A stretch of 32,000 nt of DNA from Desulfobulbus propionicus DSM 2032 (GTDB taxonomy: Bacteria > Desulfobacterota > Desulfobulbia > Desulfobulbales > Desulfobulbaceae): the NCBI RefSeq assembly GCF_000186885.1, contig NC_014972.1, positions 900,001-932,000 on the forward strand. Reading direction: 5' to 3'. The number at the start of each line of letters is the position of its first letter. The stretch's first letter is position 1. The notes under the pieces were generated by a model. The model saw only the letters and a program-made list of their open reading frames with translations, made no database searches and had not been told where the DNA came from. The position numbers and the translations under genes were made by a program. Below are positions 9,273 through 25,946 of the stretch, one piece after another.

Positions 9273-9722
9273 ATGGGAGTGACGCTCTGTTCGGTATGCG
9301 GCAACGAGGTTGCACCTGGGCCGTTGCAGTGCCCGTACTGCCAGGCCGCGTGTGGCGTCAACCTGCCACGCCCTGCCGAGGTGCTGCACCGCCAGGTCAA
9401 TTTGAAACAGGGCATGCCGCTGGTCCAGCAGGCGCTCGATCGCCTGGAAAGTGCAATTCGCCAGAACGCCGCCGAAGGGTGCAAGGTCTTGACCCTGATT
9501 CACGGCTACGGTTCAAGCGGCACCGGCGGGGCGATCAAGACCGCTGTCCAGCACCAGTTGCAGTTCCTGCGGCATCAGGGTCGGATCGAGGCGATTATTC
9601 CCGGGGAACACTTTGAAGGCCGCTCCGGCCGCGGCCGTCAGTTGTTGCGCCGCTTTCCCTTTCTCGCTGCCCACCGTGATCTCAATCGCGCCAACCCCGG
9701 CGTTACCCTGGTCGTACTGTAA
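9273..9722 (+). CDS. Smr-domain protein with N-terminal zinc ribbon
   Basis: CSVCGNEVAPGPLQCPYC (CxxC-x10-CxxC) is followed by an Smr-like core (LTLIHGYGSSGTGGAIK). The ATG at 9273 is preceded by AGAGGGG. The track start at 9252 is a GTG seven codons upstream. Confidence 0.75.
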   Translation: MGVTLCSVCGNEVAPGPLQCPYCQAACGVNLPRPAEVLHRQVNLKQGMPLVQQALDRLESAIRQNAAEGCKVLTLIHGYGSSGTGGAIKTAVQHQLQFLRHQGRIEAIIPGEHFEGRSGRGRQLLRRFPFLAAHRDLNRANPGVTLVVL

Positions 9723-9790
9723 CCGATAGTCTTACCGTGCCGAGGTGGTCCCGGTGTCATCCAGAGCAATAGATCAACCAAGGAGGATGT

Positions 9791-10498
9791 ATGCGCAGCG
9801 GTGAACGTTCGGCCGATGCATTGCGGCCGTTCAGTGTGGAATACGGGGTTCAGCCCCATGCCGACGGCTCGGTGCTGATCCGCATGGGCAATACCCATGT
9901 GCTGTGCGGGGTTACGGTGGAGGATCGGGTGCCGCCTTTTCTCAAGGACAAAGGTCAGGGCTGGATCACCGCCGAGTACGGCATGTTGCCCTGCGCCACC
10001 CACAGTCGGGGGCGGCGGGAAGCGGTTTCCGGTCTGTCCGGGCGGACCCATGAAATCCAGCGGCTGATCGGGCGCTCCCTGCGGATGATGGTGGACTTGA
10101 GCCTCTTGGGCGAGCACACCCTGCGGGTCGATTGCGATGTGCTCAACGCCGACGGCGGCACCCGCTGCGCATCGATTACCGGCGGCGCGCTCGCGGTAAA
10201 AATGGCCCTGGCGCGCATGGTCGAGCGCGGTCGATTGCCGGCCCTGCCGCCGTTGCTGCCGGTGGCGGCGATCAGCGCCGGGGTGGTGGCTGGTCAGCCG
10301 GTGCTCGATCTCGATTATGCCGAGGATTCGTCCGCCGAGGTGGACGCCAACTTCGTCATGAGCGGCGACGGCCGCTGGATCGAGGTCCAGAGCACGGCCG
10401 AGGGCGGACCCTTCCATCCACAATTGTTCACCGCCATGGCGGAACTGGCTGCACGGGGCACTGGCCAGTTGTTTGGTCTATGGGAAACGAGGGGATAA
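9791..10498 (+). CDS. rph: Ribonuclease PH
   Basis: 235 aa with RNase PH motifs ([58 protein letters not shown]). A perfect AGGAGG lies at 9781-9786. Confidence 0.95.
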
Positions 10499-10621: not shown

Positions 10622-11122
10622 CTAGCGCGGCAGCCGCTGGAGCAGTACCAGGCCGTCCGGAGTGACCGGCTCGATCTGATGCAGCTGTTCAATCTGGCCC
10701 AAGGGGATAAACCGGCCGTGCTCGATCTCGCTTGCCTGCAGGGTGAACGGGCCGTTGCTGGTACAGGCAAAGATGCGGCCCCAGACGCGGTTGCGATCGT
10801 CCTCGTAGTACTGATCAAAGAGGGGGCGGAGTTTGAGTCCTGTTATGCCCAGCTCTTCATGCAGTTCCCGCCGCGCTGATTCCTCGTAGCTTTCCCCGTC
10901 CAGGACCACGCCGCCGGCGGCCAGGTCCCAGTAGCCGGGATAAATGTCCTTGTTCATCGACCGTTTCTGGATGAACAGCTCGCCAGCGGTGTTGAAGACC
11001 AGGATGTAACTGGCCCGGTGGATGAGGCGTTGCTGGCGCATGATCCGGCGGGTGACCGCGCCCAGGGGAGTGTTGTCACGATCAACGATGGTCACGATCT
11101 CGTCGGCGGGATTGGTGAACAT
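10622..11122 (-). CDS. NUDIX hydrolase, YfcD-like
   Basis: Nudix box GGVVLDGESYEESARRELHEELGI. The flanks (IHRASYILV, NRVWGRIFACTSNGPFTLQ) resemble E. coli YfcD from memory. With ATG at 11122 the AGGAGG sits 8 nt upstream and the rlmKL stop overlaps it (TGATG). An alternative ATG at 11128 lies only 2 nt from the SD. Confidence 0.8.
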   Translation of the reverse strand: MFTNPADEIVTIVDRDNTPLGAVTRRIMRQQRLIHRASYILVFNTAGELFIQKRSMNKDIYPGYWDLAAGGVVLDGESYEESARRELHEELGITGLKLRPLFDQYYEDDRNRVWGRIFACTSNGPFTLQASEIEHGRFIPLGQIEQLHQIEPVTPDGLVLLQRLPR

Positions 11123-13326
11123 CAGCATGCCTCCTGGGGCTCCGAGGGGCTGAACGGGTGACGCATCTCCCAGCAGCGGTGGATGCGGCGGTTGCGCTGG
11201 AAATCCAGAGGCACGGTCTGGTCGCTGATTTCGCGCACGTCGAATTCCTGCTCAAGGGTCGGGTCCAGTTTGAACTTGCGAAAATTGGTGGAGAAGATCA
11301 GCACCCCGGCCTTGGTCAGATGCTGCATGGCCAGGCGGAGCAGGGCAGGGTGATCGTTCTGGATGTCGAACGTTTGCTTACGGTGGCGGGCATTGGAAAA
11401 GGTGGGCGGATCGACAAAGATCACCCCGAAGCGGTCGTGGTTGCGCTTGAGCCAGTCCATGCAGTCGGCCTCGACACACTGGTGCAGCGGTCCGCCAAAG
11501 CCGTTGAGCGCCAGGTTGGCCTGGGCCCGACTCAGGTAGGTTTCGGAAACATCCACCGTGGTGGTGGCGGTGGCGCCGCCCATGGCGGCATAGACGGTGG
11601 CCGAGCCGGTATAGGCGAACAGGTTGAGAAAGGTTTTGCCGTGGGTCAACTGGCCCAGTCGCGTCCGGGTCAGTCGATGATCGAGAAACAGACCGGTATC
11701 GAGGTAGTCGGTGAAGTTGACCAGAAATCGGCCGCCGCCCTCGCGCACTTCGTACAGGGTGCCGGTTCCCGGTTTTTTCTGGTACTGTTGCGCCCCTTTC
11801 TGTTTCTGCCGCGTCTTGATAAAGAGCCGGCTGCGGGGCACGTCGAACACGGCGCGGATGACCTGCAGGGCCTGCTGGAATCGCTCCTCTGCCTTGGCGG
11901 GATCGATGGTGGCCGGCGGGGCGTACTCCTGAACATGGAGCCATTCCTCGTAGCAATCGATGGCCAGGTTGTATTCCGGGATGTCGCCATCATAGAGGCG
12001 AAAACAGGTGATGCCTTCGGCCTCGGCCCACGGCAGGAGGGTGGTGCAGTTCTTGATCAGGCGGTTGGCCAGATCCTCACCGGGGCTGCCGGCCGCCAGG
12101 GCGACCGGGGCCCAGCGGTGCACGGCCTTTTCTCCCATCTGACTCTCCTGACCTACCAGCAGCTGGCACTTGATCGGGCCATTGAACAGCCGGTGCCGCT
12201 CTTGCCACTGCATGCCGGTCATCTCGGCAAGATCGGGGTTGGCGGTGAAAAAGCCGAGCGTCCAGCCGGAAAACTGGCTACGGAATACCCGGCCCAGGCA
12301 GCGGTAGAGATATTTGACCGCCTCTTTTTCCGACAAACGCTCGCCGTAGGGCGGATTGGTCAGCAGGCATCCCCTGGGGCCCGGGCTCTGCAGGCGGGCC
12401 AGTTGCCGTTGTTTGATGACGATCACATCACGCAGTCCGGCGGCGATCACGTTTTTGCGGGCCGCGGCCACCACCTTGGGGTCGGCGTCGTAGCCGATGA
12501 ACTGTGGCCAGGTTTCGGGCAAACTCCGACCTTCGCGGTCCAAGGCCTCCTGGACCAAGCGTTCCCATAACAGCGGGTCATGTTTGTTCCAGGCCATGAA
12601 GCCAAAAGTTTTGCGCAGCAAGCCGGGAGCGCTGTCGCTGAGCATCAGGGCCGCCTCGATCAGCAGGGTGCCGCCGCCGCACATCGGGTCAAGCAGGATG
12701 GGTTCCGCTTGCCGACGATCCAGCCAGCCCGAAAGGCGGACGATGGCCGCGGCCAGGGTCTCCTTGAGCGGCGCCTCACCGCTGCCGGTGCGATAGCCGC
12801 GCCGGTGCAGGCTCTCCCCCGAGAGATCCAGGGAGAGCGATGCGCCGGTACCCTGGACATGGAGGTTGAGACGAATGTCCGGGGCAAAGGCGTTGACATC
12901 CGGACGCTTGCCGAACCGTTTGCGAAATTGGTCGACAATGGCGTCCTTGATCCGCAGCGAGGCGAATTGGCTGTGGGTGAGGGAGGCGTTGACCAGGGTG
13001 GTGTGGACGGCAAAGGTCTGTTGAGCGGTGAAATGCTCGTCCCAGAGGATGTTGCCGGCATGGGCATACAGGGCGTCCGGATTGGGGGCGTCGAACCGGG
13101 CCAGTTCCAGCAGGATGCGCGAGGCAAAACGCGACCACAGACAGGCGCGGTAGCCGCTTTCCAGGTGGCCGCTCCAGGTGACCGCACCGGGATGGGCGTC
13201 GATCTGTTCGCCGCCGAAGGAGGCTATTTCCTCACTGACCAGCGGTTCCAGGCCAAAGCCGCAGGTGGCGGTGAATCTCAGGGGCTGCTTTTTCTTTTTT
13301 TTCGATGTCGGGCGGATGCGGTACAT
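11122..13326 (-). CDS. rlmL: Bifunctional 23S rRNA (G2445-N2 / G2069-N7) methyltransferase RlmKL
   Basis: 734 aa measured from the ATG at 13326. A THUMP-like N-terminus is followed by two SAM-methyltransferase cores (LDPMCGGGTLLIEA ... LLTNPPYGERL; FAYTGSATVYAA ... IFVDPPTFSN). The 472 codons upstream of 13326 in the 1206-aa track ORF are open frame antisense to real genes, not coding. Confidence 0.9.
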   Translation of the reverse strand: MYRIRPTSKKKKKQPLRFTATCGFGLEPLVSEEIASFGGEQIDAHPGAVTWSGHLESGYRACLWSRFASRILLELARFDAPNPDALYAHAGNILWDEHFTAQQTFAVHTTLVNASLTHSQFASLRIKDAIVDQFRKRFGKRPDVNAFAPDIRLNLHVQGTGASLSLDLSGESLHRRGYRTGSGEAPLKETLAAAIVRLSGWLDRRQAEPILLDPMCGGGTLLIEAALMLSDSAPGLLRKTFGFMAWNKHDPLLWERLVQEALDREGRSLPETWPQFIGYDADPKVVAAARKNVIAAGLRDVIVIKQRQLARLQSPGPRGCLLTNPPYGERLSEKEAVKYLYRCLGRVFRSQFSGWTLGFFTANPDLAEMTGMQWQERHRLFNGPIKCQLLVGQESQMGEKAVHRWAPVALAAGSPGEDLANRLIKNCTTLLPWAEAEGITCFRLYDGDIPEYNLAIDCYEEWLHVQEYAPPATIDPAKAEERFQQALQVIRAVFDVPRSRLFIKTRQKQKGAQQYQKKPGTGTLYEVREGGGRFLVNFTDYLDTGLFLDHRLTRTRLGQLTHGKTFLNLFAYTGSATVYAAMGGATATTTVDVSETYLSRAQANLALNGFGGPLHQCVEADCMDWLKRNHDRFGVIFVDPPTFSNARHRKQTFDIQNDHPALLRLAMQHLTKAGVLIFSTNFRKFKLDPTLEQEFDVREISDQTVPLDFQRNRRIHRCWEMRHPFSPSEPQEAC

Positions 13327-13599
13327 GAGAATAGGTGTATTGGGGGCAGAACAATCTGTGAGCAATAGACCCGGTTCCGTCGCGGCGAGAGCAACCGGGG
13401 GAACGGGCGGGGCGGGAATCGTGCTGGCCGGTGAATATCTTGACAAGGTGTGCCGCCTGGCTGCGACATCCCCTCCGAAGTCCGCACTCCGGGGACACGT
13501 CCGCCAGAGGACAGGCGAATTGCCCCGCGCGGCGCTGTCATCCGCCGGCAGGCGCCTCGCAACATAGCCATTCTTGGTGGGGAAGTAAACAAGAACACG

Positions 13600-14355
13600 A
13601 TGAGGGATGAGGGATTCGTTGCGCCGACGGCCAAGGTCGCTCTGGTCAGCGCCGCCATGCCACGCCAACGACCGCCGTCTCCGGGAGAGATCATGGACGA
13701 GCACAATGCAGCACCACACGCACGCGACACGGAGGACAGCCGGCTCAACCGGGAACACGGGCATGCCCTGCACAATATTTTCAGCATCATAATCGCCAAC
13801 GCGGAAATGATCGGCGAGGAATCGAGGGGCATGGAGACGCTGCAACGGCGGCTCGACCGGATCATCGCGGCCAGCCGCCGGGGCGAGCAGTTGGTGGACG
13901 GGATACGCTCCCTTTCCAAGGCACGGCATGCGCCCCGGCCCGAACCCACGGAGCAGGCATCGCTTCCCACCGTTGCCGACGGGAGATTGGGCCGTGTGCT
14001 GATCGTCGACGATGAACCCGATGTGGTGGAGATTCTCCGGAGGTACCTTGAACGGGCCGGGTTGCAGGTTCATGGTTTCATCGACAGCCGCGAGGCCTTG
14101 AACGGGCTGCGCCGGGAACCGTTGGCCTACGATCTGGTGATCACCGACCTCGATATGCCGAACCTGGGTGGAATCGAGTTGCGCGAGCAGCTGCGGACCA
14201 TCCGTCCGGACCTGCCAGTCATCGTCATCACCGGCCATGAAGGGCAGTGTTCCGGGGGGCCGTTCTCGCTGTCCGGTGTCACGGAGTGGTTGTCCAAACC
14301 GATCAACCGGAACCACCTGTTGGACACGGTGGGGCGTCTTTTGCCGCCGGCTTGA
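13600..14355 (+). CDS. HisKA (DHp)-like phosphotransfer domain fused to a receiver domain; no HATPase_c domain
   Basis: The H-box-like helix EHGHALHNIFSIIIANAEMIGEE...LQRRLDRIIAASRRGEQLVDGIRSLSK aligns with the H-box region of the hybrid kinase at 24321-25946 (IAHDFNNLLAAILGYAEL...). An intact REC follows directly (VLIVDDEPD, LVITDLDMP, VIVITG, LSKP). The start is uncertain: ATG 13600 or ATG 13693. Confidence 0.7.
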   Translation: MRDEGFVAPTAKVALVSAAMPRQRPPSPGEIMDEHNAAPHARDTEDSRLNREHGHALHNIFSIIIANAEMIGEESRGMETLQRRLDRIIAASRRGEQLVDGIRSLSKARHAPRPEPTEQASLPTVADGRLGRVLIVDDEPDVVEILRRYLERAGLQVHGFIDSREALNGLRREPLAYDLVITDLDMPNLGGIELREQLRTIRPDLPVIVITGHEGQCSGGPFSLSGVTEWLSKPINRNHLLDTVGRLLPPA

Positions 14356-14467
14356 CATTTTCCGGGACAGCCTGTGTAATGGGCGTATGTGGTAGGTGTT
14401 GTGGGCAGAGTTTCTTGAAAATGTTAGACAATATTCCATGTTCCCGTGCTGTGGAACCGGAGAATGG

Positions 14468-15847
14468 ATGGCTGAAATCCTGATTATCGACGATGACCCC
14501 CTGTTCGCGGAAACCGTGGCCGACAAGCTCGACAGCCTGCGGCACACGTCCCGATGCGCGCACACCTTGACCGCCGGCCTTGCCGCGGCGGTCGAGGGCC
14601 GTTTTGACGTGGTACTGCTCGATGTCTGTCTTCCGGACGGCAACGGCCTGCTGGCCATCGATCGGCTGCGTTCCGTGGCCTCGGACCCGCAGGTGATCAT
14701 CATCACCGGCCAGGGAGATCCGGATGGGGCCGAGCTGGCCATCCGTCACGGCGCTTGGTGCTATCTGGAGAAGAGCTCGATTGTCAAGGAGATCACCCTG
14801 CCATTGACCCGGGCCTTGCAGTACCGCCAGGCCCTGAGCGGACAGAAGGCCGTGCTCAAGACGGTGGAGCGCGACCAGCTGGTCGGCGAAAGTCCCCGTT
14901 TCCTCCAATGCCTGGATATGCTGGCCAAGGCGGCGGCAGCCGATGCCAGCGTCCTTGTTTCCGGGGAGTCAGGAACGGGCAAGGAGGCCTTTGCCCGGGC
15001 CATCCATGCCAACAGCCGCCGCAGGAGCGGCAACTTCGTGGTGGTCGACTGCACCGCCCTGCCGGAACAACTGGTGGAAAGCGTGCTTTTTGGCCATGTC
15101 AAGGGTGCCTTCACCGGCGCCGATCGGGCCAATCGCGGTCTGATCCGCCATGCCGACAAGGGAACGCTTTTTCTCGACGAGATCGGCGAGCTGCCGCTGG
15201 CCACCCAGAAAAGTTTCCTCCGTGTCCTTCAGGAACGCACCTTTTGTCCGGTGGGCAGCCAGGAGGAGTGTCACAGCGATTTTCGCCTGATTTGCGCCAC
15301 CAACCGCGATCTGGTGGCCATGACCGAGAAGGGGGTGTTCCGCGAGGATCTGCTCTACCGTCTGCGGGGACTGTCCCTGCACCTGCCGCCCCTGCGCGAG
15401 CGCGACGGCGACATCCCCCGGTTGGTGGAACATTTCCTCAGCCGCTTGGTGCAGCGGTATGGCCAGGAGAGAAAAGAGTGCTTGCCCGATTTCATGGACT
15501 ATCTCACCAGCTACGCCTGGCCGGGCAATGTCCGCGAGCTGTCCCAGGCGATGGAATCCGCCTTTGCCCATGCGGTCTATTCGCCGGTGCTCTTTCCGCA
15601 ACACCTGCCGGTGCATATCCGCACGGCCCATGCCCGAGCCAACGTTCGCGGCCATGAAACGATCCCGGCCGATGTTCCGAGTTCCGAGGCCATTCTTGCC
15701 TGGCGGGAGGCCAAGGATGCCTTTGAGCGCGAGTACACCCAACGGCTTCTCCGCCACAGTGCTGGCAATATCATGGAAGCCGGCCGACTGTCCGGCCTCT
15801 CCCGCACCCGCCTCTACCAGTTGATCAGGAAGTTTCAGCTTGGCTGA
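14468..15847 (+). CDS. Sigma-54-dependent transcriptional activator (REC - AAA+ - Fis-type HTH; NtrC family)
   Basis: REC domain (ILIIDDD, VVLLDVCLPDGNG, IIITG, LEKS). AAA+ domain with Walker A GESGTGKE, the sigma-54 contact loop GAFTGA, ELPLATQKSFLRVLQE and FREDLLYRL. C-terminal HTH GNIMEAGRLSGLSRTRLYQLIRKF. The ATG at 14468 has GGAG 5 nt upstream. The track start at 14396 is an upstream extension. Confidence 0.9.
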   Translation: MAEILIIDDDPLFAETVADKLDSLRHTSRCAHTLTAGLAAAVEGRFDVVLLDVCLPDGNGLLAIDRLRSVASDPQVIIITGQGDPDGAELAIRHGAWCYLEKSSIVKEITLPLTRALQYRQALSGQKAVLKTVERDQLVGESPRFLQCLDMLAKAAAADASVLVSGESGTGKEAFARAIHANSRRRSGNFVVVDCTALPEQLVESVLFGHVKGAFTGADRANRGLIRHADKGTLFLDEIGELPLATQKSFLRVLQERTFCPVGSQEECHSDFRLICATNRDLVAMTEKGVFREDLLYRLRGLSLHLPPLRERDGDIPRLVEHFLSRLVQRYGQERKECLPDFMDYLTSYAWPGNVRELSQAMESAFAHAVYSPVLFPQHLPVHIRTAHARANVRGHETIPADVPSSEAILAWREAKDAFEREYTQRLLRHSAGNIMEAGRLSGLSRTRLYQLIRKFQLG

Positions 15848-15958: not shown

Positions 15959-15993
15959 GTTCACTTTTCGGCACACTGTGCTTTTTTGTGAAC
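15959..15993. promoter_or_regulatory. Nested palindrome GTTCAC-N6-GCACA-C-TGTGC-N6-GTGAAC; candidate upstream activator site for the adjacent sigma-54 activator
   Basis: Read directly from the sequence. The outer arms GTTCAC (15959-15964) and GTGAAC (15988-15993) and the inner arms GCACA/TGTGC (15971-15981) are perfect inverted repeats. The centre lies about 115 bp upstream of the -24 element. A further inverted copy of CGGCACAC (as GTGTGCCG) lies at 15894-15901. Confidence 0.35.
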
Positions 15994-16090
15994 GATTGCC
16001 CGCTTGTCGATCCCCATTCATCCCCTCGCCAGATCGGTCGTATCCCGCGCCAACGCCGGCTATCGGCATTTTTCTTCTTTTTGCTCCAGG

Positions 16091-16106
16091 CGGCATGATC
16101 CTTGCC
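16091..16106 (+). promoter_or_regulatory. Sigma-54 (RpoN) -24/-12 promoter candidate: cGGCATgatccTTGCc
   Basis: GG (16092-16093) and GC (16104-16105) are spaced exactly as in the consensus TGGCAC-N5-TTGC. The element lies about 58 nt upstream of the ATG at 16164. It sits immediately downstream of a sigma-54 activator gene and of a T-rich tract (16069-16083). Confidence 0.6.
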
Positions 16107-16163
16107 AATGAGGAGCAGCGGACAGGCACATCGCGGTCCGTGGAGAACAGTGAGGAACTATGC

Positions 16164-16568
16164 ATGAACGTGCTGTTGTATGCGGCCAAACAGACGGCAA
16201 GCGGTGAACGGCTGAAACAGTCCATCGAGACATTGACGTCCCTGGAATCCCTGACCGATTGCGGGAGCATCGCGGAATTGATCCAGTATCTGCGAAACCC
16301 CGATCCGTTGCCGGAAACCGTGGTGCTCCAGGCGACAAGCCATCAGGATTTGCAGGTGTTCGAACCCTTCCGTTTTCGGCTGGAAATGGTGTTTTTTGTT
16401 CTGGTGCTGCCGGATGCCGATACAGAGACCGTGGCGCGCGGCCATCAGTTGCGGCCGCGTTTCATCGCCTACCAGGACAGCGATTTCAGCGAGGTCGGCG
16501 CCGTGCTGGCCCGGTTGGAATCCCGCCAGGACCATCGTTTTGGCGCCGGCTCTTCGCGCAATCCTTAG
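16164..16568 (+). CDS. Small hypothetical protein (134 aa); possible degenerate receiver-like alpha/beta fold
   Basis: The ATG at 16164 has GAGGA 7 nt upstream. The alternating hydrophobic-strand pattern (NVLLYAA / TVVLQA / FFVLVLP / RFIAYQD) resembles a CheY-like fold, but the acidic pocket and Lys are absent. The track ORF start at 15894 runs through the promoter region. Confidence 0.55.
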   Translation: MNVLLYAAKQTASGERLKQSIETLTSLESLTDCGSIAELIQYLRNPDPLPETVVLQATSHQDLQVFEPFRFRLEMVFFVLVLPDADTETVARGHQLRPRFIAYQDSDFSEVGAVLARLESRQDHRFGAGSSRNP

Positions 16569-16582
16569 ACGGGGTACTCCCA

Positions 16583-18103
16583 ATGAGTCAGGAACAACTC
16601 TTTGCCTCTTTTCTCCTTGACCGTCAGGCCGATCTCGAGATCGCCCTGCCCGCGGAACAGGTGGTCGAGGCCATGCCCCTCGCGGCCCCGATCCAGCCCT
16701 TGCCCACCGGGGCCTTTTTTCTTGAGGGAATCATGCCGTTGCGGGGCGATGTGATCCCGGTAATCAACCTGAAAAAACGGTTGGCCTTGACGGAAACCGC
16801 ATACGGCGACGATGCCAAGGTGGCAGTGATCCAGTTCAACCGCAAGCGGTACGGCCTGTTGGTGGACGATATCCGCGAAGTGCTGCGGGTTTCCCCCCAC
16901 GCTGTCCAGCCTCTCGATCCCTTTCTTCTCACCGAGGAGACGGTGATCGTCGACCTGATCAAGCTGGACCAGGGGCGGCGGACCCTGGAGCTGCTCGATC
17001 TGCGGCGGCTTTTTCCCACGGGCGGGTCCGGCGTCGACGAGGCCCTTGACCATGACGAGCCGCCACCGGCGGTGCAGCGCAGTTATTCGCAGTTCGTCGT
17101 TTTTTCCTGCCGCCAGCAGATTTACGGCATTCCGGTGGGCGATTCGCGGGAGATCTGCTTTTTCAGCGACATTGACCAGACCTTCAAGAGCGGCAAGGTG
17201 GAAGGCGCCCTGCAGCTGCGCGGTCAGACCATCCCGGTGCTGTGCAGCGCGACCCTGCTCGGTTGCGCGGAAGAAACGATCACCCCCACCGAGGAGACCC
17301 GCATCCTGGTGATGCAGTCGGGGCTTCTGTCCTTTGGTTTGATTGTCGACAAGATCCATCAGATTTTGGTGGTGGCCGACGATGCCATCATGGCCATTCC
17401 GGGGCGTCACCTGCCGCATCTGCGGGGCGTGTGCACCTGCGCGCCCTACAACGACATCATGCTGCTCGATGTTCAGGGGTTGATCGGTTCCCAGGCCGAC
17501 AGAATCAGCGCCATGACGCGGCTGCGCAAGAACAACGGCTCGACCGAGGCGGAGGAGGAATCGGCGGCCCGCCACCTCATCACCGAGCACTGCTATCTCG
17601 TGTTTGCCATCGGCAAGCATTATGCAATTGAACTCAAGGATGTGCAGGAAATCATCGGCTGCGGCGATTGCATGCCGATTGCCGGCGATGGCCTGGTGCA
17701 GGGAATCATCAACCTGCGTGGCCGGATCGTGCCGGTGATCCGCCTGCGCAACTTTTACGCCTGTCCAGACCACAACGTGGTGAGCCGGGACCCCAGCCCG
17801 GAGGACAAGCTGATCATCGGCCGGGCCAATGGCAACCTGGTGGCCTTGCTGGTCGATGAAATTATCACTATCTACAAACAGGAACGGTACCACGCCACCC
17901 CGTCGCTCAGGCCTGAGTTGCAGGCGAAAAAGGACACCCTGGACCGGTTGATCGAGTTCATCAACGGCGAGGGGCTGAAGGAGCATGTGCTGGTTGTCAA
18001 TGTCGCCAATTTGCTGCGTCACCATCTCCTGATCGCGGACCAGGAGACGGTGACGCCCGTGGCGGCGCCGGCGGATTTGATCGATTCGCCGCCAATCAAG
18101 TAA
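16583..18103 (+). CDS. Protein with three tandem CheW-like domains
   Basis: 506 aa from the ATG at 16583, 14 nt after the previous stop. Three copies of the CheW core pattern are present: FLEGIMPLRGDVIPVINLKKRL, VEGALQLRGQTIPVLCSATLLG and LVQGIINLRGRIVPVIRLRNFY. Each is followed by a ...GLLVD/GLIVD/ALLVDEI segment. Confidence 0.85.
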   Translation: MSQEQLFASFLLDRQADLEIALPAEQVVEAMPLAAPIQPLPTGAFFLEGIMPLRGDVIPVINLKKRLALTETAYGDDAKVAVIQFNRKRYGLLVDDIREVLRVSPHAVQPLDPFLLTEETVIVDLIKLDQGRRTLELLDLRRLFPTGGSGVDEALDHDEPPPAVQRSYSQFVVFSCRQQIYGIPVGDSREICFFSDIDQTFKSGKVEGALQLRGQTIPVLCSATLLGCAEETITPTEETRILVMQSGLLSFGLIVDKIHQILVVADDAIMAIPGRHLPHLRGVCTCAPYNDIMLLDVQGLIGSQADRISAMTRLRKNNGSTEAEEESAARHLITEHCYLVFAIGKHYAIELKDVQEIIGCGDCMPIAGDGLVQGIINLRGRIVPVIRLRNFYACPDHNVVSRDPSPEDKLIIGRANGNLVALLVDEIITIYKQERYHATPSLRPELQAKKDTLDRLIEFINGEGLKEHVLVVNVANLLRHHLLIADQETVTPVAAPADLIDSPPIK

Positions 18104-18136
18104 TCGCGAACACGAAAGGAACAAAGGAATCAGGGA

Positions 18137-20863
18137 ATGGAGGAAACAATGACAACTGGAGCGCAACCACCGATGGGCATGGATCTGACCGTACTGGAGA
18201 CCTGGGAAGAGCCCGGATTTATGGTCGACGGCAAGCGGATCATCACCTGGGCCAACGCGGCGTTTCTCCAAGCCTTCGGTTTGGAGGCGCACGAGGTGAT
18301 CGGCAAGATGACCTGCGAGGAGAGCTGTAATCTGCATCTCTGCGGCACCAAGGACTGTCCGGTGGACAAGGCCGGCCGGATGCACAAACCGGTGGCGGCC
18401 GAGGCAATACGCAACCACGGTGCCAGCATCCGCTATTACCGTTCACTGGCCCGGCCAGTGGGCGAGGATGGCGGTCAAACCCTGGTCACCATGACCGACA
18501 TAAGCGACAGAAAACTGCTGGAAGCGCGGTTACGGCAGATGGAAACCGACCTCAACGTCATCCCTACCCCTGTGCTTGAGATTGACGACAAGTTCACCAT
18601 TACCTTCATGAACCCCGCCGGTGCGGCCGTGGCCGGCCTGACCCCGGACGAGGCCGTGGGCAGGAAGTGCTACGATCTGTTCAAGACCCCCCATTGCCGG
18701 ACCGAGAAATGCGCCTGCGCGCGGGCGATGAAGACCGATTCGGTTGTTTCCGAGCAGACCATCGCCCGTCCCCGGGACGGGGTGATCGTGCCGATCAAGT
18801 ACACCGGCGCGCCGATCAAGGATGCCAAGGGCAACATTGTCGGGGCGATTGAATATGTGCTCGATGTCACCGAAGAAAATAAGCAGCAGCGGCTGGCCGA
18901 GGAGAAGATCGAGAACCTCAATGCCATTCCCACGCCGATCATGGCCATGGACACTGATTTTACCATCACCTTCATGAACCCCGCCGGTGCGGCCGTGGCC
19001 GGCCTGACCCCGGACGAGGCCGTGGGCAGGAAGTGCTACGATCTGTTCAAAACCCCCCATTGCCGGACCGAGAAGTGCGCCTGCGCGCGGGCGATGAAGA
19101 CCGATTCGATTGTTTCCGAGCAGACCATTGCCCGTCCCCGGGACGGGGTGATCGTGCCGATCAAGTACACCGGCGCGCCGATCAAGGATGCCAAGGGCAA
19201 CATCAAGGGTGCCCTGGAGTTTATCCTCGACATCACCGAGGAGGCGCGGCAACGCCACGATGCCAACACCAAGATCGAGAACCTCAACGCCATTCCCACG
19301 CCGATCCTGTCCATCGACACCGACTATACCATCACCTTCATCAATCCCGCCGGTGCGGCCGCCGTCGGCCTCACCCCGGACAGCGCCATCGGCCGCAAAT
19401 GCTTTGACCTGTTCAAAACCCCGCATTGCCAGACCGAACGATGCGCCTGCGCGCGGGCAATGAAGTCCGACACGGTGGTCAGCGAGGAAACCATTGCCCG
19501 GCCCCGGGAAGGCATGATCATGCCGATCAAGTACACCGGCGCGCCGATCAAGGACGCCAAGGGCAACATCACCGGCGCGCTTGAGTTCGTCCTCGACATC
19601 ACCGACGAGGCCCGGCAGCGACAGGAGGCCAACGAAAAGATCGAGAATCTCAACGCCATCCCCACGCCGATCTTCTCCATCGACACCGAGTTCGCCATCA
19701 CCTACATCAATCCGGCCGGCGCCAGGGTTTTGGGGGCGAGCGTCGATGAGTTGATCGGTAAAAAATGTTACAGCCTGTTCAACACCACCCACTGCAACAC
19801 CGAACACTGTGCCTGCGGCCAGGCGATGAAAAGCGATAGCGTGGTCGCGGCCAAGACCGTGGCCAGGGTCAACGGCCGCGAGATCCCGCTCAAGTACACC
19901 GGCGCGCCGATCAAGGACGCCAAGGGCAACATCAAGGGCGCCCTGGAGTTTGCCCTCGACATCAGTGCCGAAACCGGGGTTGAGCAACTGGTGAGCCGGG
20001 CCAGTCAGGAGGTGGCCGAGTTGGTGGCCGATTCCCAGCAGCAGATGGAGGAGGTGCGCGGCAACATGCGGTTGATGGGCGATTCGCTCAACCAGGAAGT
20101 AATCCGCCTCGACGAGTCGGAGACGACCATTCGCAGAATGCTCGAATCGTCCACCGAAATGCTCGGGGTGAGCGAGCAGGTCAACAAGCTGGCCGGCTCG
20201 ATGTCGCGCGAGGCGGAAAATGGTCGCAAGGCCGGAGCCGAGGCCGGCGACAAGATGCGGCAGATCAACCGATCGATGCAGCAGAACAACGAGATGGTCG
20301 CCACCCTGGTGTCCCAGGTGGAAAAGATCGGCGGCTTTGTCGATATCATCAAGGAGATCGCCTCGCAAACCAACTTGCTGGCCTTCAACGCCGCCATCGA
20401 GGCCGCGCGCGCCGGCGATGCCGGCCGGGGGTTCGCCGTGGTTGCCGACGAAGTGCGCAAGCTGGCCGAGAACAGCTCGCGCTCGGCGGTGGATATTTCC
20501 AATATCGTCAAGATGGTGGAGAACGACAGCCGGCAGACCATCGCCGCCATGCAGGAGGGCATGCGCATGCTCGATGACGGCTCCCAGGTGATCAGTACCG
20601 CGCTTTCGGCCATGGACGAGATCTCTTCCGGCATCATGACGATCTCGACCTCGGTCGAGGACGTCAGCGGCCGAGCCGCAGCCTTGGCTGACCACGGCCA
20701 CAAGGTGATGGAGCAGATTCAAGCCGTGGTCACGTCCTCCGGCGAGAACCAAAGGACCACGGAAACCGTGCAGACCTCGGTCGGTGACACGGTCAAGGCC
20801 CTGGACCGGTTGATGGCCTCGAGCAGTTCGTTGCAAGAGGCGGTCAACAGTCTGTGCAAATAG
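18137..20863 (+). CDS. Soluble methyl-accepting chemotaxis protein with five N-terminal Cys-rich PAS-like modules
   Basis: The C-terminal signalling domain has the invariant hairpin tip [37 protein letters not shown]. No hydrophobic TM-length segment was seen by eye. The N-terminal ~620 aa are repeated PAS-like units. The alternative ATG at 18149 has a better SD (GGAGGA, 4-5 nt spacer). Confidence 0.9.
18542..20005 (+). repeat. Four in-frame tandem repeats of 366 bp (122 codons) inside the chemoreceptor gene
   Basis: The anchor TTCATGAACC/TTCATCAATC/TACATCAATC recurs at 18605, 18971, 19337 and 19703, exactly 366 bp apart. The block TACACCGGCGCGCCGATCAAGGA(T/C)GCCAAGGGCAACAT is conserved in all four units. 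Confidence 0.92.
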
Positions 20864-20933: not shown

Positions 20934-21497
20934 ATGACCATTTTTGGCAACAGGATCTTCACCGTGCGTTTGCAGCTGCGGCGCATCGAGCTCGAAGACC
21001 TGCAGCTTTTGGCGCGATGGAGCGGCGACCCCCAGGCCCATGGACAGTACCTGACGCCGGAAAACCATTCCGTCGATCATCTGGGCATGCAGCTACGGGC
21101 GGGGGTATTGTGGAACGAGCGGAACAAGACGTTTTTGATCGAGCTGCGCGACGGCGAGCCCATCGGCACGATCCAATACTGGATTCGCTCCGAGGACCCG
21201 GGAGCGGCGGTGATTGCGGTGAAGATTGCACGGACCGAGGAGCGGAACAAAGGCTACGGGACCGAGGCGCAGAAATATTTGATCCTGTTTCTCTTCAACC
21301 GGCTCGCCATCCGTCGGATCGAGATGTACACCGATGTCAACAACCTGGCCCAGCAGCGCTGCCTGCGCAAACTCGGCTTCGAACTCGCCCAGTCCCTGTC
21401 CTACGCCGATCAACAGGTTCAGCGGCTGGGCTCCCTCTACCGGCTGGATCGGCAGCGATTTGTCCATGAGCCCATCTACCAGTATCCCGATGCCTAA
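20934..21497 (+). CDS. GNAT-family N-acetyltransferase (RimJ/RimL-like)
   Basis: 187 aa from the ATG at 20934, with GGGAGGA 9 nt upstream. The acetyl-CoA-binding motif context is present (RNKGYGTEAQKYLILFLF; NNLAQQRCLRKLGFEL). The track start at 20865 would run through the stem-loop. Confidence 0.85.
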   Translation: MTIFGNRIFTVRLQLRRIELEDLQLLARWSGDPQAHGQYLTPENHSVDHLGMQLRAGVLWNERNKTFLIELRDGEPIGTIQYWIRSEDPGAAVIAVKIARTEERNKGYGTEAQKYLILFLFNRLAIRRIEMYTDVNNLAQQRCLRKLGFELAQSLSYADQQVQRLGSLYRLDRQRFVHEPIYQYPDA

Positions 21498-22521
21498 GCC
21501 GCCAGGGCTTCTTTTTGACCGCAGGTACTACGAGCACGGCATCCCGCAGGTGTCGCTGGAGAACGCGGGCCGGGTGCGCGGCCTCTATCGTACCCTCGAA
21601 GGACCGCAATATGCCGGCCAGCTGCGCACATTCCTCCCGCGCGAGGCCTCGTCGGCCGACATTGAAGCCGTCCATTCGGCCTTTTACCTCGAACAGCTGC
21701 GCGAGCATGTCAATATCGACGATCCCTATTCCTACGACCGCGATACCTATCTGATGGAGCAGAGCCTCTATACGGCGGCCTTGGCCGCCGGCGGCTGCCT
21801 GGAGCTGGCCGATCGGATCCTCGACGGCGAGATCGACTATGGCTTCGCCCTGATCCGCCCTCCCGGACACCATGCCGAACCGGGTCGGGGCATGGGGTTC
21901 TGCGTGTTCAACAATGTGGCGATCACCGCTCAATATCTGCGCCGGGTGTATGGCCTGCGGCGGATTCTCATCGTCGATTTCGACGTCCATCACGGCAATG
22001 GCACCCAGACAGTTTTTTACGAGACCGATCAGGTTTTTTTCGTTTCGATCCATCAGGAAAAAATTTTCCCTTTTTCCGGATCGGCGCGCGAGACCGGCAG
22101 CGACAAGGGACGGGGCTACACCATCAACCTGCCGGTGCACCCGCAGTTCAGCGACCAGGAGTACCTGTATCTGCTCAGCCGGGTTCTCGGCGGGGTGGTG
22201 GAACAGTATCTGCCGCAGATCATCCTTGTTTCCGCCGGATTTGACGGCCATTGCGACGACCCGATCAGCCGTGTCCTGCTGTCCACCCAATGGTATGCCA
22301 CCGTGACGGAACTGCTCAAATACCTGGCCCACGAGGCGTGCAACGACCGGCTGCTGTTCGTGCTGGAAGGAGGGTACAATCCGGACTCGCTGCAGGCCTC
22401 GGTGCTGGTCACGGTGGACAGCCTGCTGCATCCCGCCAGCCGCCGGCCGGGAGTGGTCCATTCCCAACGGGCGGCCAAGATCCTTGAGAATCATCCCCTG
22501 CATGCTTTCTGGACGGTATGA
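21490..22521 (+). CDS. Histone-deacetylase-family zinc amidohydrolase (deacetylase; AcuC / acetylpolyamine amidohydrolase-like)
   Basis: Catalytic motifs are present: RPPGHHA, DFDVHHGNGTQ, SAGFDGH, LEGGY. The ATG at 21490 overlaps the GNAT stop (ATGCCTAA, 8-nt overlap). Confidence 0.9.
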   Translation: MPKPPGLLFDRRYYEHGIPQVSLENAGRVRGLYRTLEGPQYAGQLRTFLPREASSADIEAVHSAFYLEQLREHVNIDDPYSYDRDTYLMEQSLYTAALAAGGCLELADRILDGEIDYGFALIRPPGHHAEPGRGMGFCVFNNVAITAQYLRRVYGLRRILIVDFDVHHGNGTQTVFYETDQVFFVSIHQEKIFPFSGSARETGSDKGRGYTINLPVHPQFSDQEYLYLLSRVLGGVVEQYLPQIILVSAGFDGHCDDPISRVLLSTQWYATVTELLKYLAHEACNDRLLFVLEGGYNPDSLQASVLVTVDSLLHPASRRPGVVHSQRAAKILENHPLHAFWTV

Positions 22522-22556: not shown

Positions 22557-23006
22557 ATGACAAAAAACACAACCGTTGATACCACGTCGCTGCGGACGAT
22601 CTTCGCTGAATGCCGCCAGTGCGGCACCTGTTGCACCTCTTATCGCAAAATCGCCCTCCAGCCCGACGAGGTGGAGTTTATACGAAAGATGGGCGGCCAT
22701 GTCGGGGTGGACATCAGCTTGTCCCAGCTGCGCGGCAAAACCATGGACGAGTTGGTGGCCGAGGCCCGTGCCGACGGCAAGGTGTTCATGATCCACCCCG
22801 ACGACAGGGGATGTATTTTCCTTGAGAAAAGAAATGACAAGCATGTCTGCCGGATCTATCACCACCGGCCGCGCGCCTGTCGAGGATTCCGCTGCAATAT
22901 GGCCGATTCCAGCTTTCTCGCCCTGTTCGGCGCCGACAGCATTTTCCTGCTCGGTCAGGATCGTTTCGGCCTGCCGTTGGCCAGGGACAAGGAGGTGATC
23001 CGCTAG
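22557..23006 (+). CDS. YkgJ-family cysteine-cluster protein (CxxCxxCC; putative Zn/Fe-binding)
   Basis: An N-terminal CRQCGTCC motif plus a second Cys group (CIFL...HVCRIYHHRPRACRGFRC), as in the UPF0153/YkgJ family. No obvious SD was seen. Confidence 0.75.
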   Translation: MTKNTTVDTTSLRTIFAECRQCGTCCTSYRKIALQPDEVEFIRKMGGHVGVDISLSQLRGKTMDELVAEARADGKVFMIHPDDRGCIFLEKRNDKHVCRIYHHRPRACRGFRCNMADSSFLALFGADSIFLLGQDRFGLPLARDKEVIR

Positions 23007-23156: not shown

Positions 23157-24317
23157 ATGCTGACCGAGTTGAACATTCGTAAGTTTCTTGCTCCCGAGAT
23201 TGTTTTTGGCGATGGCGCCATTGAACTGCTCGGGCGCTATGCCCTTAATTTTGGCGCAAGCCGGGTTTTTGTGGTCACCGATGCAGGTATTGCCCAAGCC
23301 GGTCTCGTGGAGCGGGCGATTCAGATTTTGCAGTCCTCCGGGGTGCAGGCGGTGGTGTATGATCGGGTCAGCGCCAATCCCCGCGATTTTGAGGTGATGG
23401 AAGCGGCCGCCCTGTACCGTGAGTCCGGCTGCGACATCATTGTCGCCCTCGGGGGCGGCAGCCCCATGGACTGCGCCAAGGGCGTCAGTATCGTGTCCGC
23501 CAACGACAGGCATGTGCTCGACTTTCAAGGCGTGGACAATGTGGAGGTGCCCGGTCCGCCCTTGATCTGCATTCCCACCACCTCCGGCTCCTCGGCCGAT
23601 GTCTCCCAGTTCGCCATCATCAACAACAGCCAGGAACAGGTCAAGGTCGCGATCATCAGCAAGACCATGGTGCCTGACCTGGCCTTGCTCGACCCTGGGC
23701 TGACCCTCAGCATGGACCGGCATCTGACCCTGTGCACCGGGGTGGATGCCTTGGTGCATGCCATCGAGGCCTATGTGAGTTCAGCCAGTTCGCCGCTGAC
23801 CGACCTGCATGCCTTGGAGGCCATCCGTCTGATCCGCCGTTTCCTCCCCCAGGTGGTGGAGCGGCTCGACGATATCGATCTGCGTGAACAGGTCATGCTT
23901 GCCAGCCTGGAGGCTGGTCTGGCTTTTTCCAACGCCAGTCTGGGCGCCGTGCACGCCATGGCCCACAGTCTGGGGGGCCTGCTCGATCTGCCCCACGGCG
24001 AGTGCAACGCCCTGTTGCTTGACGCGGTGATTGCCTTCAACTACAGTGCGGCGCCGGAACGCTACGATCGCATCGGCGAAATCTTTGGCGTGCAGACGAA
24101 CGGGCTGACGGAGCAAGAACGGCGGCAGGGCTTGCTCCAAGCGATCCGCTCCTTCAAGCGGGACCTGGGTCTGGAGCCCGGGCTCGGTATTAGGGGGGTG
24201 CGGCGGGAGGATATCAGCGTGCTGGCCCGCAAGGCCGTTGCCGACCCCTGCGTGGCCACCAACCCGAAACGTATTCAACTTCGCGATATCGAGGAAATCT
24301 ATGGGGAGGCCTTCTGA
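23157..24317 (+). CDS. Iron-containing (group III) alcohol dehydrogenase
   Basis: GGGSPMDCAKG and the metal-binding histidine context (VDALVHAIEAY; AVHAMAHSLGG). The ATG at 23157 has GGGGAGGG 5 nt upstream. The track start at 23124 is a non-ATG extension. Confidence 0.9.
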   Translation: MLTELNIRKFLAPEIVFGDGAIELLGRYALNFGASRVFVVTDAGIAQAGLVERAIQILQSSGVQAVVYDRVSANPRDFEVMEAAALYRESGCDIIVALGGGSPMDCAKGVSIVSANDRHVLDFQGVDNVEVPGPPLICIPTTSGSSADVSQFAIINNSQEQVKVAIISKTMVPDLALLDPGLTLSMDRHLTLCTGVDALVHAIEAYVSSASSPLTDLHALEAIRLIRRFLPQVVERLDDIDLREQVMLASLEAGLAFSNASLGAVHAMAHSLGGLLDLPHGECNALLLDAVIAFNYSAAPERYDRIGEIFGVQTNGLTEQERRQGLLQAIRSFKRDLGLEPGLGIRGVRREDISVLARKAVADPCVATNPKRIQLRDIEEIYGEAF

Positions 24318-24320
24318 GCA

Positions 24321-25946
24321 ATGAGCCATCGCACCGATGAACACGATCAGTGGGATCACCTCAAGGATGCCATTGTCGGCTTGGGCGAGCGCTCCATCCG
24401 CAAGAGTTATTATCCCGAACTCAAGGCGAAGATCAAAGACCTCGATCAGCAGCGCGTTTTTTTTCAGTCCATCCTCAACAGCATCCCCGACGGGGTGGTG
24501 GTGATGGACCCCTCCGGCAAAATCAGGCAGGCCAACCCCGCCCTCTGCAGGATGTTCGGCTACAGCAACGAGGAGTTGGCAGGACTCGATCCTTCGGTGC
24601 TCTATGAAAACAACTGCGCAATTTTTCGCCATGACGATTTTCCCACCACCTGGTGCCGCCGCTTTGTCCGCAAGGATGGCCGCGTTTTCCTCGGCGAGAC
24701 CCTGAACAGCGAGATTCGAGACGATCAGGGAGGGTTGCTGGGTACCTTGGAGTTGATCCGCGATGTAAGTGAACGACTGAAGGTCATCCGGCAGCAGCGG
24801 CAATTGGAGGAACAGCTGCGCCAATCACAGAAAATGGCTGCCATTGGTACCTTGGCTGGAGGTATTGCTCACGATTTCAATAACTTGCTTGCGGCAATCC
24901 TCGGCTATGCCGAGCTGGCGCTCCTCAAGCTTCCCCCGGGTGGGGCGTTGCAGCGGGAGATTCGTCAGATCCTCAAGGCCGGCGGCAAGGCCTCGGAGCT
25001 GGTCAATCAGATCCTCGCCTTCAGCCGCAAGGAAACCACCAAACGCATCCCCATTCAACCCGGCGTCCTGATCAAGGAGGTCATCAAGTTGCTGCGGGGC
25101 ACCATCCCGTCGACCATCACCATTCGTGAACGAATTGCCGCCACCGACCGCATGATCCTTGCCAATCCCACCCAGTTGCATCAGGTGGTGATGAATCTCT
25201 GTACCAATGCCTTTCATGCCATGGAAGAACAGGGAGGAGAAATGACCCTGAGCCTGGAATCGGTCAGGAAGCTATTGCGGGAAAAGGAAGAAGAGCGCGA
25301 GTGGATCAGGATCAGTGTTGCCGATAATGGCTGCGGGATCGAACCTGCGACCCTGGAACGTATTTTTGAACCCTATTTCACCACCAAACCCAGCGGCAAG
25401 GGAACCGGCATGGGCTTGGCTGTGGTCCACGGAATCGTCGAAAGTCACGGGGGACGGATCGAGGTGAAGAGCACTGTGGGGCAGGGCACCACGGTGCAGG
25501 TCTACTTCCCGGTGGTGGCCGGGGTTGAAGCCCAGCGGCCGTGCAAGGAGGAACAGTCGCTCGTCGGCGGTGATGAATCCATTCTGGTGGTCGATGACGA
25601 ACAGATGGTGGCCGATTATCTCAAGGGTTTTCTTGAGCAACTAGGCTATCGGATCACGATTTGTAACGACGGCAGCAGCGCCTTGGCGTTGTTTGAGCAC
25701 AATCCCCAAGCGTTTGATTTGGTGATCACCGATCAGACCATGCCCGGCAAGACGGGTTTTGAGATGGCCCGCAACATGCTGGCCCTGCGGCCCGACCTGC
25801 CGATCATCCTTTGCTCGGGCTACAGCTCGGCCCTTTCGCCCGAGCGGGTCGCCAAGGCCGGCATCCGCGAGTTCATGATGAAGCCGGTCTCCCTGCATGA
25901 CCTCGCCCCGGTCATCCGCGCGGTTTTACCGAACAGACCATCCTGA
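24321..25946 (+). CDS. PAS-domain hybrid sensor histidine kinase (PAS - HisKA - HATPase_c - REC), apparently cytoplasmic
   Basis: PAS (FFQSILNSIPDGVVVMDPSGKI...), H-box GIAHDFNNLLAAILGYAEL, N-box VMNLCTNAFHAM, G-boxes VADNGCGI and GKGTGMGLAVV, and REC (ILVVDDE, LVITDQTMPGKTG, LCSGY, MKP). It starts 3 nt after the ADH stop. Confidence 0.9.
   Translation: MSHRTDEHDQWDHLKDAIVGLGERSIRKSYYPELKAKIKDLDQQRVFFQSILNSIPDGVVVMDPSGKIRQANPALCRMFGYSNEELAGLDPSVLYENNCAIFRHDDFPTTWCRRFVRKDGRVFLGETLNSEIRDDQGGLLGTLELIRDVSERLKVIRQQRQLEEQLRQSQKMAAIGTLAGGIAHDFNNLLAAILGYAELALLKLPPGGALQREIRQILKAGGKASELVNQILAFSRKETTKRIPIQPGVLIKEVIKLLRGTIPSTITIRERIAATDRMILANPTQLHQVVMNLCTNAFHAMEEQGGEMTLSLESVRKLLREKEEEREWIRISVADNGCGIEPATLERIFEPYFTTKPSGKGTGMGLAVVHGIVESHGGRIEVKSTVGQGTTVQVYFPVVAGVEAQRPCKEEQSLVGGDESILVVDDEQMVADYLKGFLEQLGYRITICNDGSSALALFEHNPQAFDLVITDQTMPGKTGFEMARNMLALRPDLPIILCSGYSSALSPERVAKAGIREFMMKPVSLHDLAPVIRAVLPNRPS

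Follow-up and report, generated by a model that had tools for sequence, protein, structure and literature searches.

A triple-CheW scaffold and soluble chemoreceptor encoded with a predicted acetyltransferase/deacetylase pair, and without CheA in cis, in Desulfobulbales

Introduction

CheW domains and the signalling hairpins of methyl-accepting chemotaxis proteins (MCPs) are regarded as parts of CheA pathways. In a stretch of 32,000 nucleotides from Desulfobulbus propionicus DSM 2032 (the window, in what follows), a gene cassette pairs both of them with a predicted acetyl writer and eraser, namely a GNAT acetyltransferase and a Zn deacetylase of the histone deacetylase (HDAC) type, without a kinase or methylation genes of its own. 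An original prediction, made from the letters of the window, had recognised there a cassette of three genes encoding a small protein, a triple-CheW protein (CheW3), and a soluble MCP, devoid of CheA and CheY and placed under a sigma-54 promoter. Here, this cassette is compared with its relatives and with the closest described systems.

Canonical chemosensory pathways, including the cytoplasmic arrays of Rhodobacter sphaeroides and of Vibrio cholerae cluster I, resemble the cassette in the MCP tip, the Glu/Arg pair of CheW, the use of a soluble PAS receptor, and conditional expression. In contrast to them, neither the operon nor the 10 kb on either side of it contains a CheA, CheY, CheR, or CheB gene in about 60 loci. 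Moreover, a single protein with three CheW domains serves as the scaffold, the methylation consensus is missing from the receptor, and the partners are a GNAT, an HDAC-type enzyme, and a CxxCxxCC protein. Dedicated adaptors, i.e., extra CheW or CheV paralogues, are similar in being CheW-domain proteins encoded beside the receptor to which they are presumably coupled, whereas here three tandem CheW domains form a stand-alone protein; in the literature found by phrase search, multiple CheW domains are described only inside CheA proteins (PMC10782961).

Regulation and acetylation have their own precedents. The Che3/CrdA system of Myxococcus xanthus also combines a chemosensory-type module with an NtrC-family sigma-54 activator and no CheY (PMC3147164), but Che3 has CheA, CheB, and CheR, with CrdA as the output, whereas the cassette has no CheA and its own promoter appears to be driven by the activator. 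In Bacillus subtilis acuABC, a GNAT and a classical Zn-dependent deacetylase are encoded side by side, as in the window, and AcuA and AcuC control AcsA by lysine acetylation (PMC8556138). The differences are that the GNAT of the window belongs to Acetyltransf_3 and may not be AcuA-like, that the deacetylase is class IIb-like (AcuC is class I), that no acetyl-CoA synthetase gene is found nearby, and that the partners are a chemoreceptor and a CheW scaffold. Finally, in Pseudomonas aeruginosa, ethanol use is regulated by a pair encoded side by side, ErcA (PA1991) and its partner ErcS (PA1992), a hybrid kinase (PMC12997753). Here too, an Fe-alcohol-dehydrogenase (Fe-ADH)-like regulatory protein is encoded beside a cytoplasmic hybrid histidine kinase, although in this case the pair ends a chemoreceptor/acetylation operon, in an anaerobe, and only in Desulfobulbus-like members.

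Full-text searches of the literature on CheW together with an acetyltransferase or deacetylase, on CheA-independent chemosensory systems, and on stand-alone triple CheW proteins returned nothing relevant. The parts of the cassette belong to known families, and no description of their combination was found.

Results

A five-gene core is conserved among the related loci

Related loci were obtained from a genome scan (four), from contig look-ups (two), and from a scan of metagenomes that used an alignment of CheW3 (56), and were compared with the window proteins by tblastn. Of these relatives, 25 extended far enough downstream to be counted as complete, which makes 26 complete loci with the window. 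The order CheW3-MCP-GNAT-HDAC-CxxCxxCC was found in all 26, with zero exceptions, and these loci, when grouped by CheW3 identity, form 23 clusters at 85%, 11 at 70%, and 7 at 55%, with a minimum pairwise identity of 41%. Outside the core, the flanks were unrelated among loci, as they carried transposases and an autotransporter in L005, YchF and a glycosyltransferase in L006, MatE and a nitroreductase in L032, and iPGM and AzlC in L058.

In the window, the five genes are read from the forward strand at positions 16583–18103 (CheW3), 18137–20863 (MCP), 20934–21497 (GNAT), 21490–22521 (HDAC-type deacetylase), and 22557–23006 (CxxCxxCC protein), preceded by the gene for the small protein at 16164–16568. 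The three starts (16164, 16583, and 18137) and the gaps of 14 nt between the small protein and CheW3 and of 33 nt between CheW3 and the MCP were exact in the original prediction. The GNAT and HDAC genes overlap by 8 nt in the window, in L005, and in L006. In one sub-clade (L027, L028, L032, and L039), neither the gene for the small protein nor that for the sigma-54 activator, which in the window lies upstream of the cassette, is present nearby, and the five-gene core persists in these four loci, where activator and kinase are absent, as well as in L058, where they are replaced.

The functional unit predicted from these sequences is therefore CheW3-MCP-GNAT-HDAC-CxxCxxCC, a conserved putative operon of Desulfobulbales, to which the small protein, the activator, and the Fe-ADH with its kinase are lineage-specific additions. 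The three-gene unit proposed originally has to be redrawn accordingly, as co-occurrence across loci yields five genes and leaves the small protein out. The idea of an output through the downstream enzymes or the hybrid kinase of the same gene string survives in part: the GNAT and the deacetylase are co-conserved in every complete locus, whereas the Fe-ADH and the hybrid kinase downstream of it are confined to Desulfobulbus-like loci and look like input or regulation.

In the best explanation that we can offer, the GNAT and the deacetylase would be functionally tied to a cytoplasmic assembly of receptor and CheW3, which would sense redox or metal state and be inducible; we hold it tentatively, at a little under even confidence.

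Two of the metagenome contigs, L057 (33–4081) and L036 (2–2474), showed a second CheW3 gene after the MCP-GNAT-HDAC set, which in L057 comes after a gap of 490 nt with no CxxCxxCC gene in between. These second copies point to tandem or paralogous cassettes in some genomes.

The acetyltransferase and deacetylase are predicted to be intact

The GNAT (187 aa; Pfam Acetyltransf_3, E = 4.2e-20) carries an RNKGYG sequence that corresponds to the RxxGxG acetyl-CoA motif. The deacetylase (343 aa, class IIb HDAC-type; Hist_deacetyl, E = 4.2e-94), once aligned to HDAC6 and HdaH, keeps the GHH, DxHHGNG, AGFD..DP, and EGGY motifs, all of them intact. Thus, the two genes encode a writer/eraser pair predicted to be catalytically intact, with the gene pairing of an AcuA/AcuC-like system. 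The fifth gene of the core encodes a CxxCxxCC protein (PF03692, E = 2.5e-9), putatively Zn- or Fe-binding; the flagellin lysine methylase FliB may belong to PF03692 as well, which would be a lead for this protein.

The pair might also run a cycle of small-molecule acetylation, for example of polyamines, with the receptor sensing a related metabolic state and without any protein modification. In line with this, the best named relatives of the GNAT are aminoglycoside and spermidine acetyltransferases, and both HDAC10 and the bacterial acetylpolyamine amidohydrolases, which belong to the same superfamily as the deacetylase, deacetylate polyamines. On the other hand, the best matches of the deacetylase were HDAC6 domains and HdaH-type enzymes (Bordetella/Alcaligenes FB188 HdaH and P. 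aeruginosa PA3774), no acetylpolyamine amidohydrolase appeared among its best 60 structures, and bacterial enzymes of the HdaH/PA3774 type are described as acting on proteins and not on polyamines (PMC8556138). No genes for polyamine transport or synthesis are conserved in the cassette either, and we regard a small-molecule cycle as improbable.

A scaffold of three CheW domains and a receptor without methylation sites

CheW3 (506 aa) matches Pfam CheW three times (E = 1.8e-56), and proteins of this family, of about 500 aa, are found throughout Desulfobulbales. Its AlphaFold 2 (AF2) model contains three CheW folds (residues 1–146, 164–314, and 335–487) joined by disordered linkers of 17–20 residues; the geometry between domains is not interpretable in this model, whose predicted TM score (pTM) is 0.47. 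Structures of CheW in the Protein Data Bank match CheW3, the first domain being a good CheW match, and conservation is highest in domains 1 and 3. Each domain keeps a G..LRG..PV motif and an invariant Glu located 23–25 residues before an invariant Arg (E29/R54, E190/R213, and E356/R379). These pairs match the Glu38-Arg62 pair of Escherichia coli CheW, a salt bridge by which the sites for receptor and kinase binding are aligned (PMC3828127). Since the three domains are on flexible linkers, one CheW3 could, on the modelled architecture, supply half of a six-membered CheW ring, and two copies could close it.

The receptor (908 aa) is predicted to consist of five PAS domains followed by an MCPsignal domain (E = 3.3e-37). 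No hydrophobic segments were found in the cassette proteins, which are predicted to be soluble (117 such windows were counted in the AcrB control), so the receptor is expected to be cytoplasmic. Its tip is nearly identical to that of Thermotoga maritima TM1143 and thus canonical, and its C-terminal arm measures 146–148 residues in all 26 orthologues, i.e., about 21 heptads, for a hairpin of about 21 + 21. A heptad class was not assignable, as the sequence aligns to receptors of the 44H and 40H classes only if heptads are inserted or deleted. The strict methylation consensus [ASTG]2-x2-[EQ]2-x2-[ASTG]2 was found in none of the 26 receptors of the family, compared with three occurrences in TM1143 and four in Tar. 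In addition, the receptor ends in ...NSLCK, which is not a CheR-tethering tail of the NWETF type.

The PAS region of the window receptor corresponds to a tandem DNA repeat of 366 nt (positions 18596–19964, 3.1–3.7 copies, 79–85% identity). Four of the five PAS domains carry the motif Cx7HCx4CxC, which is present in two to seven copies in every orthologue, and this variation in copy number, together with the tandem DNA repeat, suggests that the sensor array has grown and shrunk repeatedly. By sequence, the best structural relatives of the PAS units are LOV domains, with the first Cys falling on the LOV Cys; a LOV-type flavin sensor was rejected, as the flavin-binding residues are not kept in an alignment inspected by eye. 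A reasonable guess is that these Cys4His PAS modules hold a metal or Fe-S centre and report redox or metal state. Separately, the first PAS domain (18137–18530) shows a different cysteine pattern, C-x3-C-x4-C-x4-C.

CheA and its partners are missing in cis

Pfam scans covered all 26 plausible genes of the window, and none of them encodes CheA, CheY, CheB, CheR, CheC, CheD, or CheZ, or a flagellar or pilus protein. As a complete che operon immediately outside the window would have counted against the original prediction, the 10 kb beyond either end were also scanned; no che operon and none of the genes just listed was present, one flank carrying ribosomal genes with rpoA, tsf, pyrH, and frr and the other OEP, beta-CASP, OmpA, HD, URO-D, radical-SAM, and Usp genes. 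Two independent screens were then applied to six-frame open reading frames of all loci (about 687 kb), one for the N-box and G2-box motifs of CheA and the other with hidden Markov models built from each CheW3 domain. Neither of them detected a CheA motif or an extra CheW-like domain within 10 kb on either side of about 60 cassette loci, and both detected the CheA and CheW genes of the unrelated control loci L003 and L004. The absence of CheA in cis claimed for the window thus holds there and extends to the related loci.

Regarding membership in a chemosensory pathway as understood in MiST, the locus has the CheW scaffold and the MCP hairpin, and it has neither CheA (within the ±10 kb screened) nor, at the locus itself, a phosphorylatable CheY or methylation-based adaptation. 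Without these three, the cassette does not qualify as a complete chemosensory pathway, at least in cis.

The D. propionicus strain itself is non-motile (PMC3608642), and for its genome a comprehensive set of flagellar genes and 106 genes of cell motility (COG N) are reported (PMC3072085), which makes a CheA elsewhere in the genome plausible. The MCP and CheW3 may then be an inducible accessory input to arrays built on that CheA, with the GNAT, the deacetylase, and the CxxCxxCC protein merely co-regulated and acting on unrelated targets, a reading that we consider possible but somewhat doubtful. It gains from the fact that orphan MCP and CheW genes are common. It also gains from the flagellar and motility genes just mentioned, the canonical receptor tip, the good match of the first CheW domain, and the presence in each CheW domain of the Glu/Arg pair with its role in aligning the two binding sites, for receptor and kinase (PMC3828127). 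Nevertheless, an accessory input leaves unexplained why the GNAT, HDAC, and CxxCxxCC genes remain linked to CheW3 and the MCP in all 26 complete loci, down to 41% identity, why the genes of the cassette are separated by short gaps or overlap, and why the receptor has no methylation sites; the lack of CheA around about 60 loci also argues against it. This reading and the functional tie of the acetylation enzymes to the receptor-CheW3 assembly are not exclusive, as an acetylation-based adaptation of receptors that signal to a distant CheA fits both.

A conserved sigma-54 promoter and candidate activator sites precede the cassette

The sequence CGGCATgatccTTGC at positions 16091–16105, 58 nt before the ATG of the small protein, is the sole correctly spaced -24/-12 match in the intergenic region. 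It has the form CGGCAT-N5-TTGC, with the GG at 16092–16093 and the GC at 16104–16105, and reads CGGCAT-N5-TTGCC when position 16106 is included. A promoter could not be claimed from this match alone, as 41 matches with two mismatches were observed in the window for 41.9 expected, which places a single one at chance level. The support comes from conservation: of 53 related loci, 34 have an element scoring at least 9/11 in the corresponding place, compared with about 4.6 expected from a background of 0.116 such sites per kb. Across the 53 loci, the sites fall into two narrow bands, one at about 480–600 nt before CheW3, just upstream of the small gene, and the other at about 90–114 nt, in loci without the small gene. 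When the window was aligned with two other Desulfobulbus loci, GGCA(T/C)G-N4-(C/T)TTGC was kept in a spacer that otherwise aligns poorly, and distant genera showed TGGCAC-N5-GTGCT (L006) and TGGCAT-N5-GTGCT (L005) in the same place. The sigma-54 promoter of the original prediction is accepted on this conserved position, the "good match" on which it was based being of no weight by itself.

Further upstream, between -111 and -136, 18 of 36 loci contain units of the form GTNCAC-N4-GTGNAC (background 0.065/kb). The window has two degenerate copies on the forward strand, at 15959–15974 and 15978–15993, which are located 132 and 113 bp before the -24 element and fall in a conserved block (15959–15993) of the alignment with the Desulfobulbus loci, and L049 has three perfect copies. 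These palindromes are probably upstream activator sites, judging from their sequence and position. Hence, position 15959, with which the coordinates of the original prediction begin, is not the promoter and marks the beginning of the pair of candidate activator sites. Two other features in the same place were discarded, namely a GGCAC...GCT near 15970 as a promoter, as it has the wrong spacing and lies inside the palindromes, and a hairpin at 15970–15982 as a terminator, as it is weak (5 pairs, 3-nt loop) and overlaps the conserved sites.

The NtrC-type activator (REC-AAA+-HTH) described in the original prediction is indeed encoded directly upstream of the cassette, at 14468–15847 on the forward strand (Sigma54_activat, E = 4.7e-64, with Response_reg, AAA_lid_14, and HTH_8). 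It contains GHVKGAFTGA and a complete receiver pocket, and its gene adjoins the cassette in most related loci. With a -24/-12 element, an adjacent activator bearing GAFTGA, and upstream sites, the locus has, at the sequence level, the components of a sigma-54 operon, and a sigma-54 control of the cassette is well supported by them. This control is widespread and not universal: L058 has no sigma-54 site, and a REC-PAS-HisKA_3 kinase and a NarL/GerE-type regulator are encoded there (7704–9841) directly upstream of CheW3, in replacement of the sigma-54 activator.

The only zero-mismatch match of the window, a perfect TGGCAC-N5-TTGC, was found in antisense orientation (reverse strand) at 18411–18425, within the 5' part of the receptor gene.

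An ErcA/ErcS-like pair likely feeds the activator in Desulfobulbus-like loci

Downstream of the core, the Fe-ADH-type protein encoded at 23157–24317 (forward strand) scored 612.6 bits against the NCBIfam ErcA equivalog NF041833, whose cut-off is 550. The gene for an ErcS-like PAS-HisKA-HATPase-REC hybrid kinase (24321–25946, forward strand; Pfam) starts 3 nt after its stop codon, and the two genes have the arrangement of an ErcA/ErcS pair. As the ErcA cut-off is passed and the ercAS pairing is present, the Fe-ADH and the kinase are best read as a lineage-specific sensor pair that feeds the activator and not as an output. The Fe-ADH was found only in Desulfobulbus-like loci, with the hybrid kinase downstream; in other genera, an orthologous hybrid kinase is encoded directly upstream of the activator gene and overlapping it. 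This hybrid kinase is probably the kinase for the activator.

The position of these regulators also allows, by analogy with M. xanthus Che3/CrdA, that the receptor and CheW3 modulate the neighbouring hybrid kinase and through it the NtrC-type activator, with transcription as the output. The activator and a hybrid kinase are adjacent to the cassette in most loci, and a chemosensory system with an NtrC homologue as output is a precedent (PMC3147164). Against this, the kinase has no CheW-like P5 docking domain, the core persists where activator and kinase are absent (the sub-clade of four loci) or of the NarL type (L058), and the sites of the activator are located upstream of the cassette, which indicates that the activator regulates the cassette. 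We thus find it very unlikely that the receptor acts through this kinase.

D. propionicus grows on ethanol and propanol, so that in the Desulfobulbus lineage the operon may be induced by alcohols. The gene at 13450–14355 (forward strand, start codon uncertain), located upstream of the activator in Desulfobulbus-like loci only, encodes an orphan protein with a receiver (Response_reg, E = 2.4e-23), a HisKA-like region below the cut-off (23.7 bits), and no ATPase domain; it may serve as an intermediate in phosphotransfer, or it may be what is left of the hybrid kinase, which holds the same position in other genera.

The small protein is a predicted pseudo-receiver

The protein of 134 aa encoded at 16164–16568 (forward strand) had no Pfam or NCBIfam match, including none to Response_reg. 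Its AF2 model (pLDDT 92.7) shows a (beta-alpha)5 fold, and its top Foldseek matches are all receiver domains (TM 0.65–0.70). A true receiver was rejected, as the profile comparison to the REC domain was not significant and the receiver pocket has neither the acidic pair nor the phospho-Asp and lacks the Thr/Ser and Lys positions. On its modelled structure, this lineage-specific accessory is a predicted pseudo-receiver, with a CheY-like fold and no phospho-acceptor. Describing the cassette as "CheY-less" is consequently correct in the strict sense only, that is, there is no phosphorylatable CheY, although a protein with a CheY-like fold is encoded.

The family of the small protein has its own motif, LPD..T..GH.LRPRF, and comprises 1283 clusters at 50% identity. 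Two distant members, on short contigs (L007 466–843 and L008 410–817), are not followed by a CheW gene and have as neighbours an exported-looking protein (L007) and a fragment of a histidine kinase (L008). A Che-specific role for the small protein was discarded in view of the size of this family and of these two members that are not beside CheW.

Other genes of the window

The ten genes from the HisKA-like/receiver protein to the hybrid kinase form a single string on the forward strand, in the order HisKA-like/receiver protein, activator, small protein, CheW3, MCP, GNAT, HDAC, CxxCxxCC protein, Fe-ADH, and hybrid kinase. Upstream, Pfam scans identified a housekeeping block on the same strand (uppS-cdsA-dxr-rseP-tsaB-ispG-proS-relA-Smr-RNase PH) and, between this block and the string, a NUDIX gene and rlmKL on the reverse strand. 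Past the hybrid kinase, a Zn-peptidase and an RND efflux system are encoded on the reverse strand. An open reading frame of 1206 aa at 11122–14742 (reverse strand) is an over-extension, as all Pfam domains of RlmKL lie within the scanned 11122–13260 and the rest overlaps the regulators on the forward strand. A defence system was also considered and dropped, since the PADLOC matches were not credible (E about 0.003, no passing stretch).

Discussion

The tie that we favour between the acetylation enzymes and the receptor-CheW3 assembly could operate as follows. In D. propionicus, the ErcA/ErcS-like pair would act on the NtrC-type activator, presumably by phosphotransfer, and the activator would bind the two palindromes and fire the sigma-54 promoter. 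The receptor and CheW3 would assemble in the cytoplasm without a kinase encoded in cis, and the Cys4His PAS modules would sense redox or metal state. As suggested by their co-conservation and by the translational coupling of their genes, the GNAT and the deacetylase would take the place of CheR and CheB, in adaptation, or of CheA and CheZ, in output, either by acetylating and deacetylating a component of the complex or by acting on a target under control of the state of the receptor.

Several observations weigh against this proposal. The link between the acetylation enzymes and the receptor and scaffold is drawn from gene context, the GNAT resembles weakly AAC(6')-Ib and RimL, which are small-molecule and N-terminal acetyltransferases, as well as SpeG, and the arrangement of the CheW3 domains relative to each other is not confidently modelled (AF2 pTM 0.47). 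When candidate acetylation sites were sought in the adaptation region of the receptor, no family-specific conserved Lys was located there. Moreover, the canonical tip and the salt-bridge pairs of CheW are equally expected if CheA is the partner, and, given the flagellar set and the 106 cell-motility genes reported for the genome, the real output could be a CheA encoded elsewhere.

A bolder version, which we consider unlikely, is that a chemoreceptor-CheW lattice signals by protein acetylation and not by His-Asp phosphotransfer, with the receptor setting the activity or the access of the GNAT and the deacetylase acting as the eraser. The target could be a protein of the cassette or a distant CheY-like protein. 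If this were true, acetylation signalling would be a kinase-independent chemosensory pathway, with a new output or a new adaptation chemistry.

By joining CheW domains and an MCP hairpin to an acetyl writer and eraser, the cassette points to a new adaptation chemistry for chemoreceptors or to a new output for receptor arrays. As a single inducible operon in a cultured and sequenced organism, it also offers a tractable handle on the purpose of bacterial HDAC-type deacetylases and on whether receptor arrays can function without CheA. Finally, the Cys4His PAS modules may represent a new kind of sensor for redox state or metals, which would be relevant to Desulfobulbales living at oxic-sulfidic interfaces.

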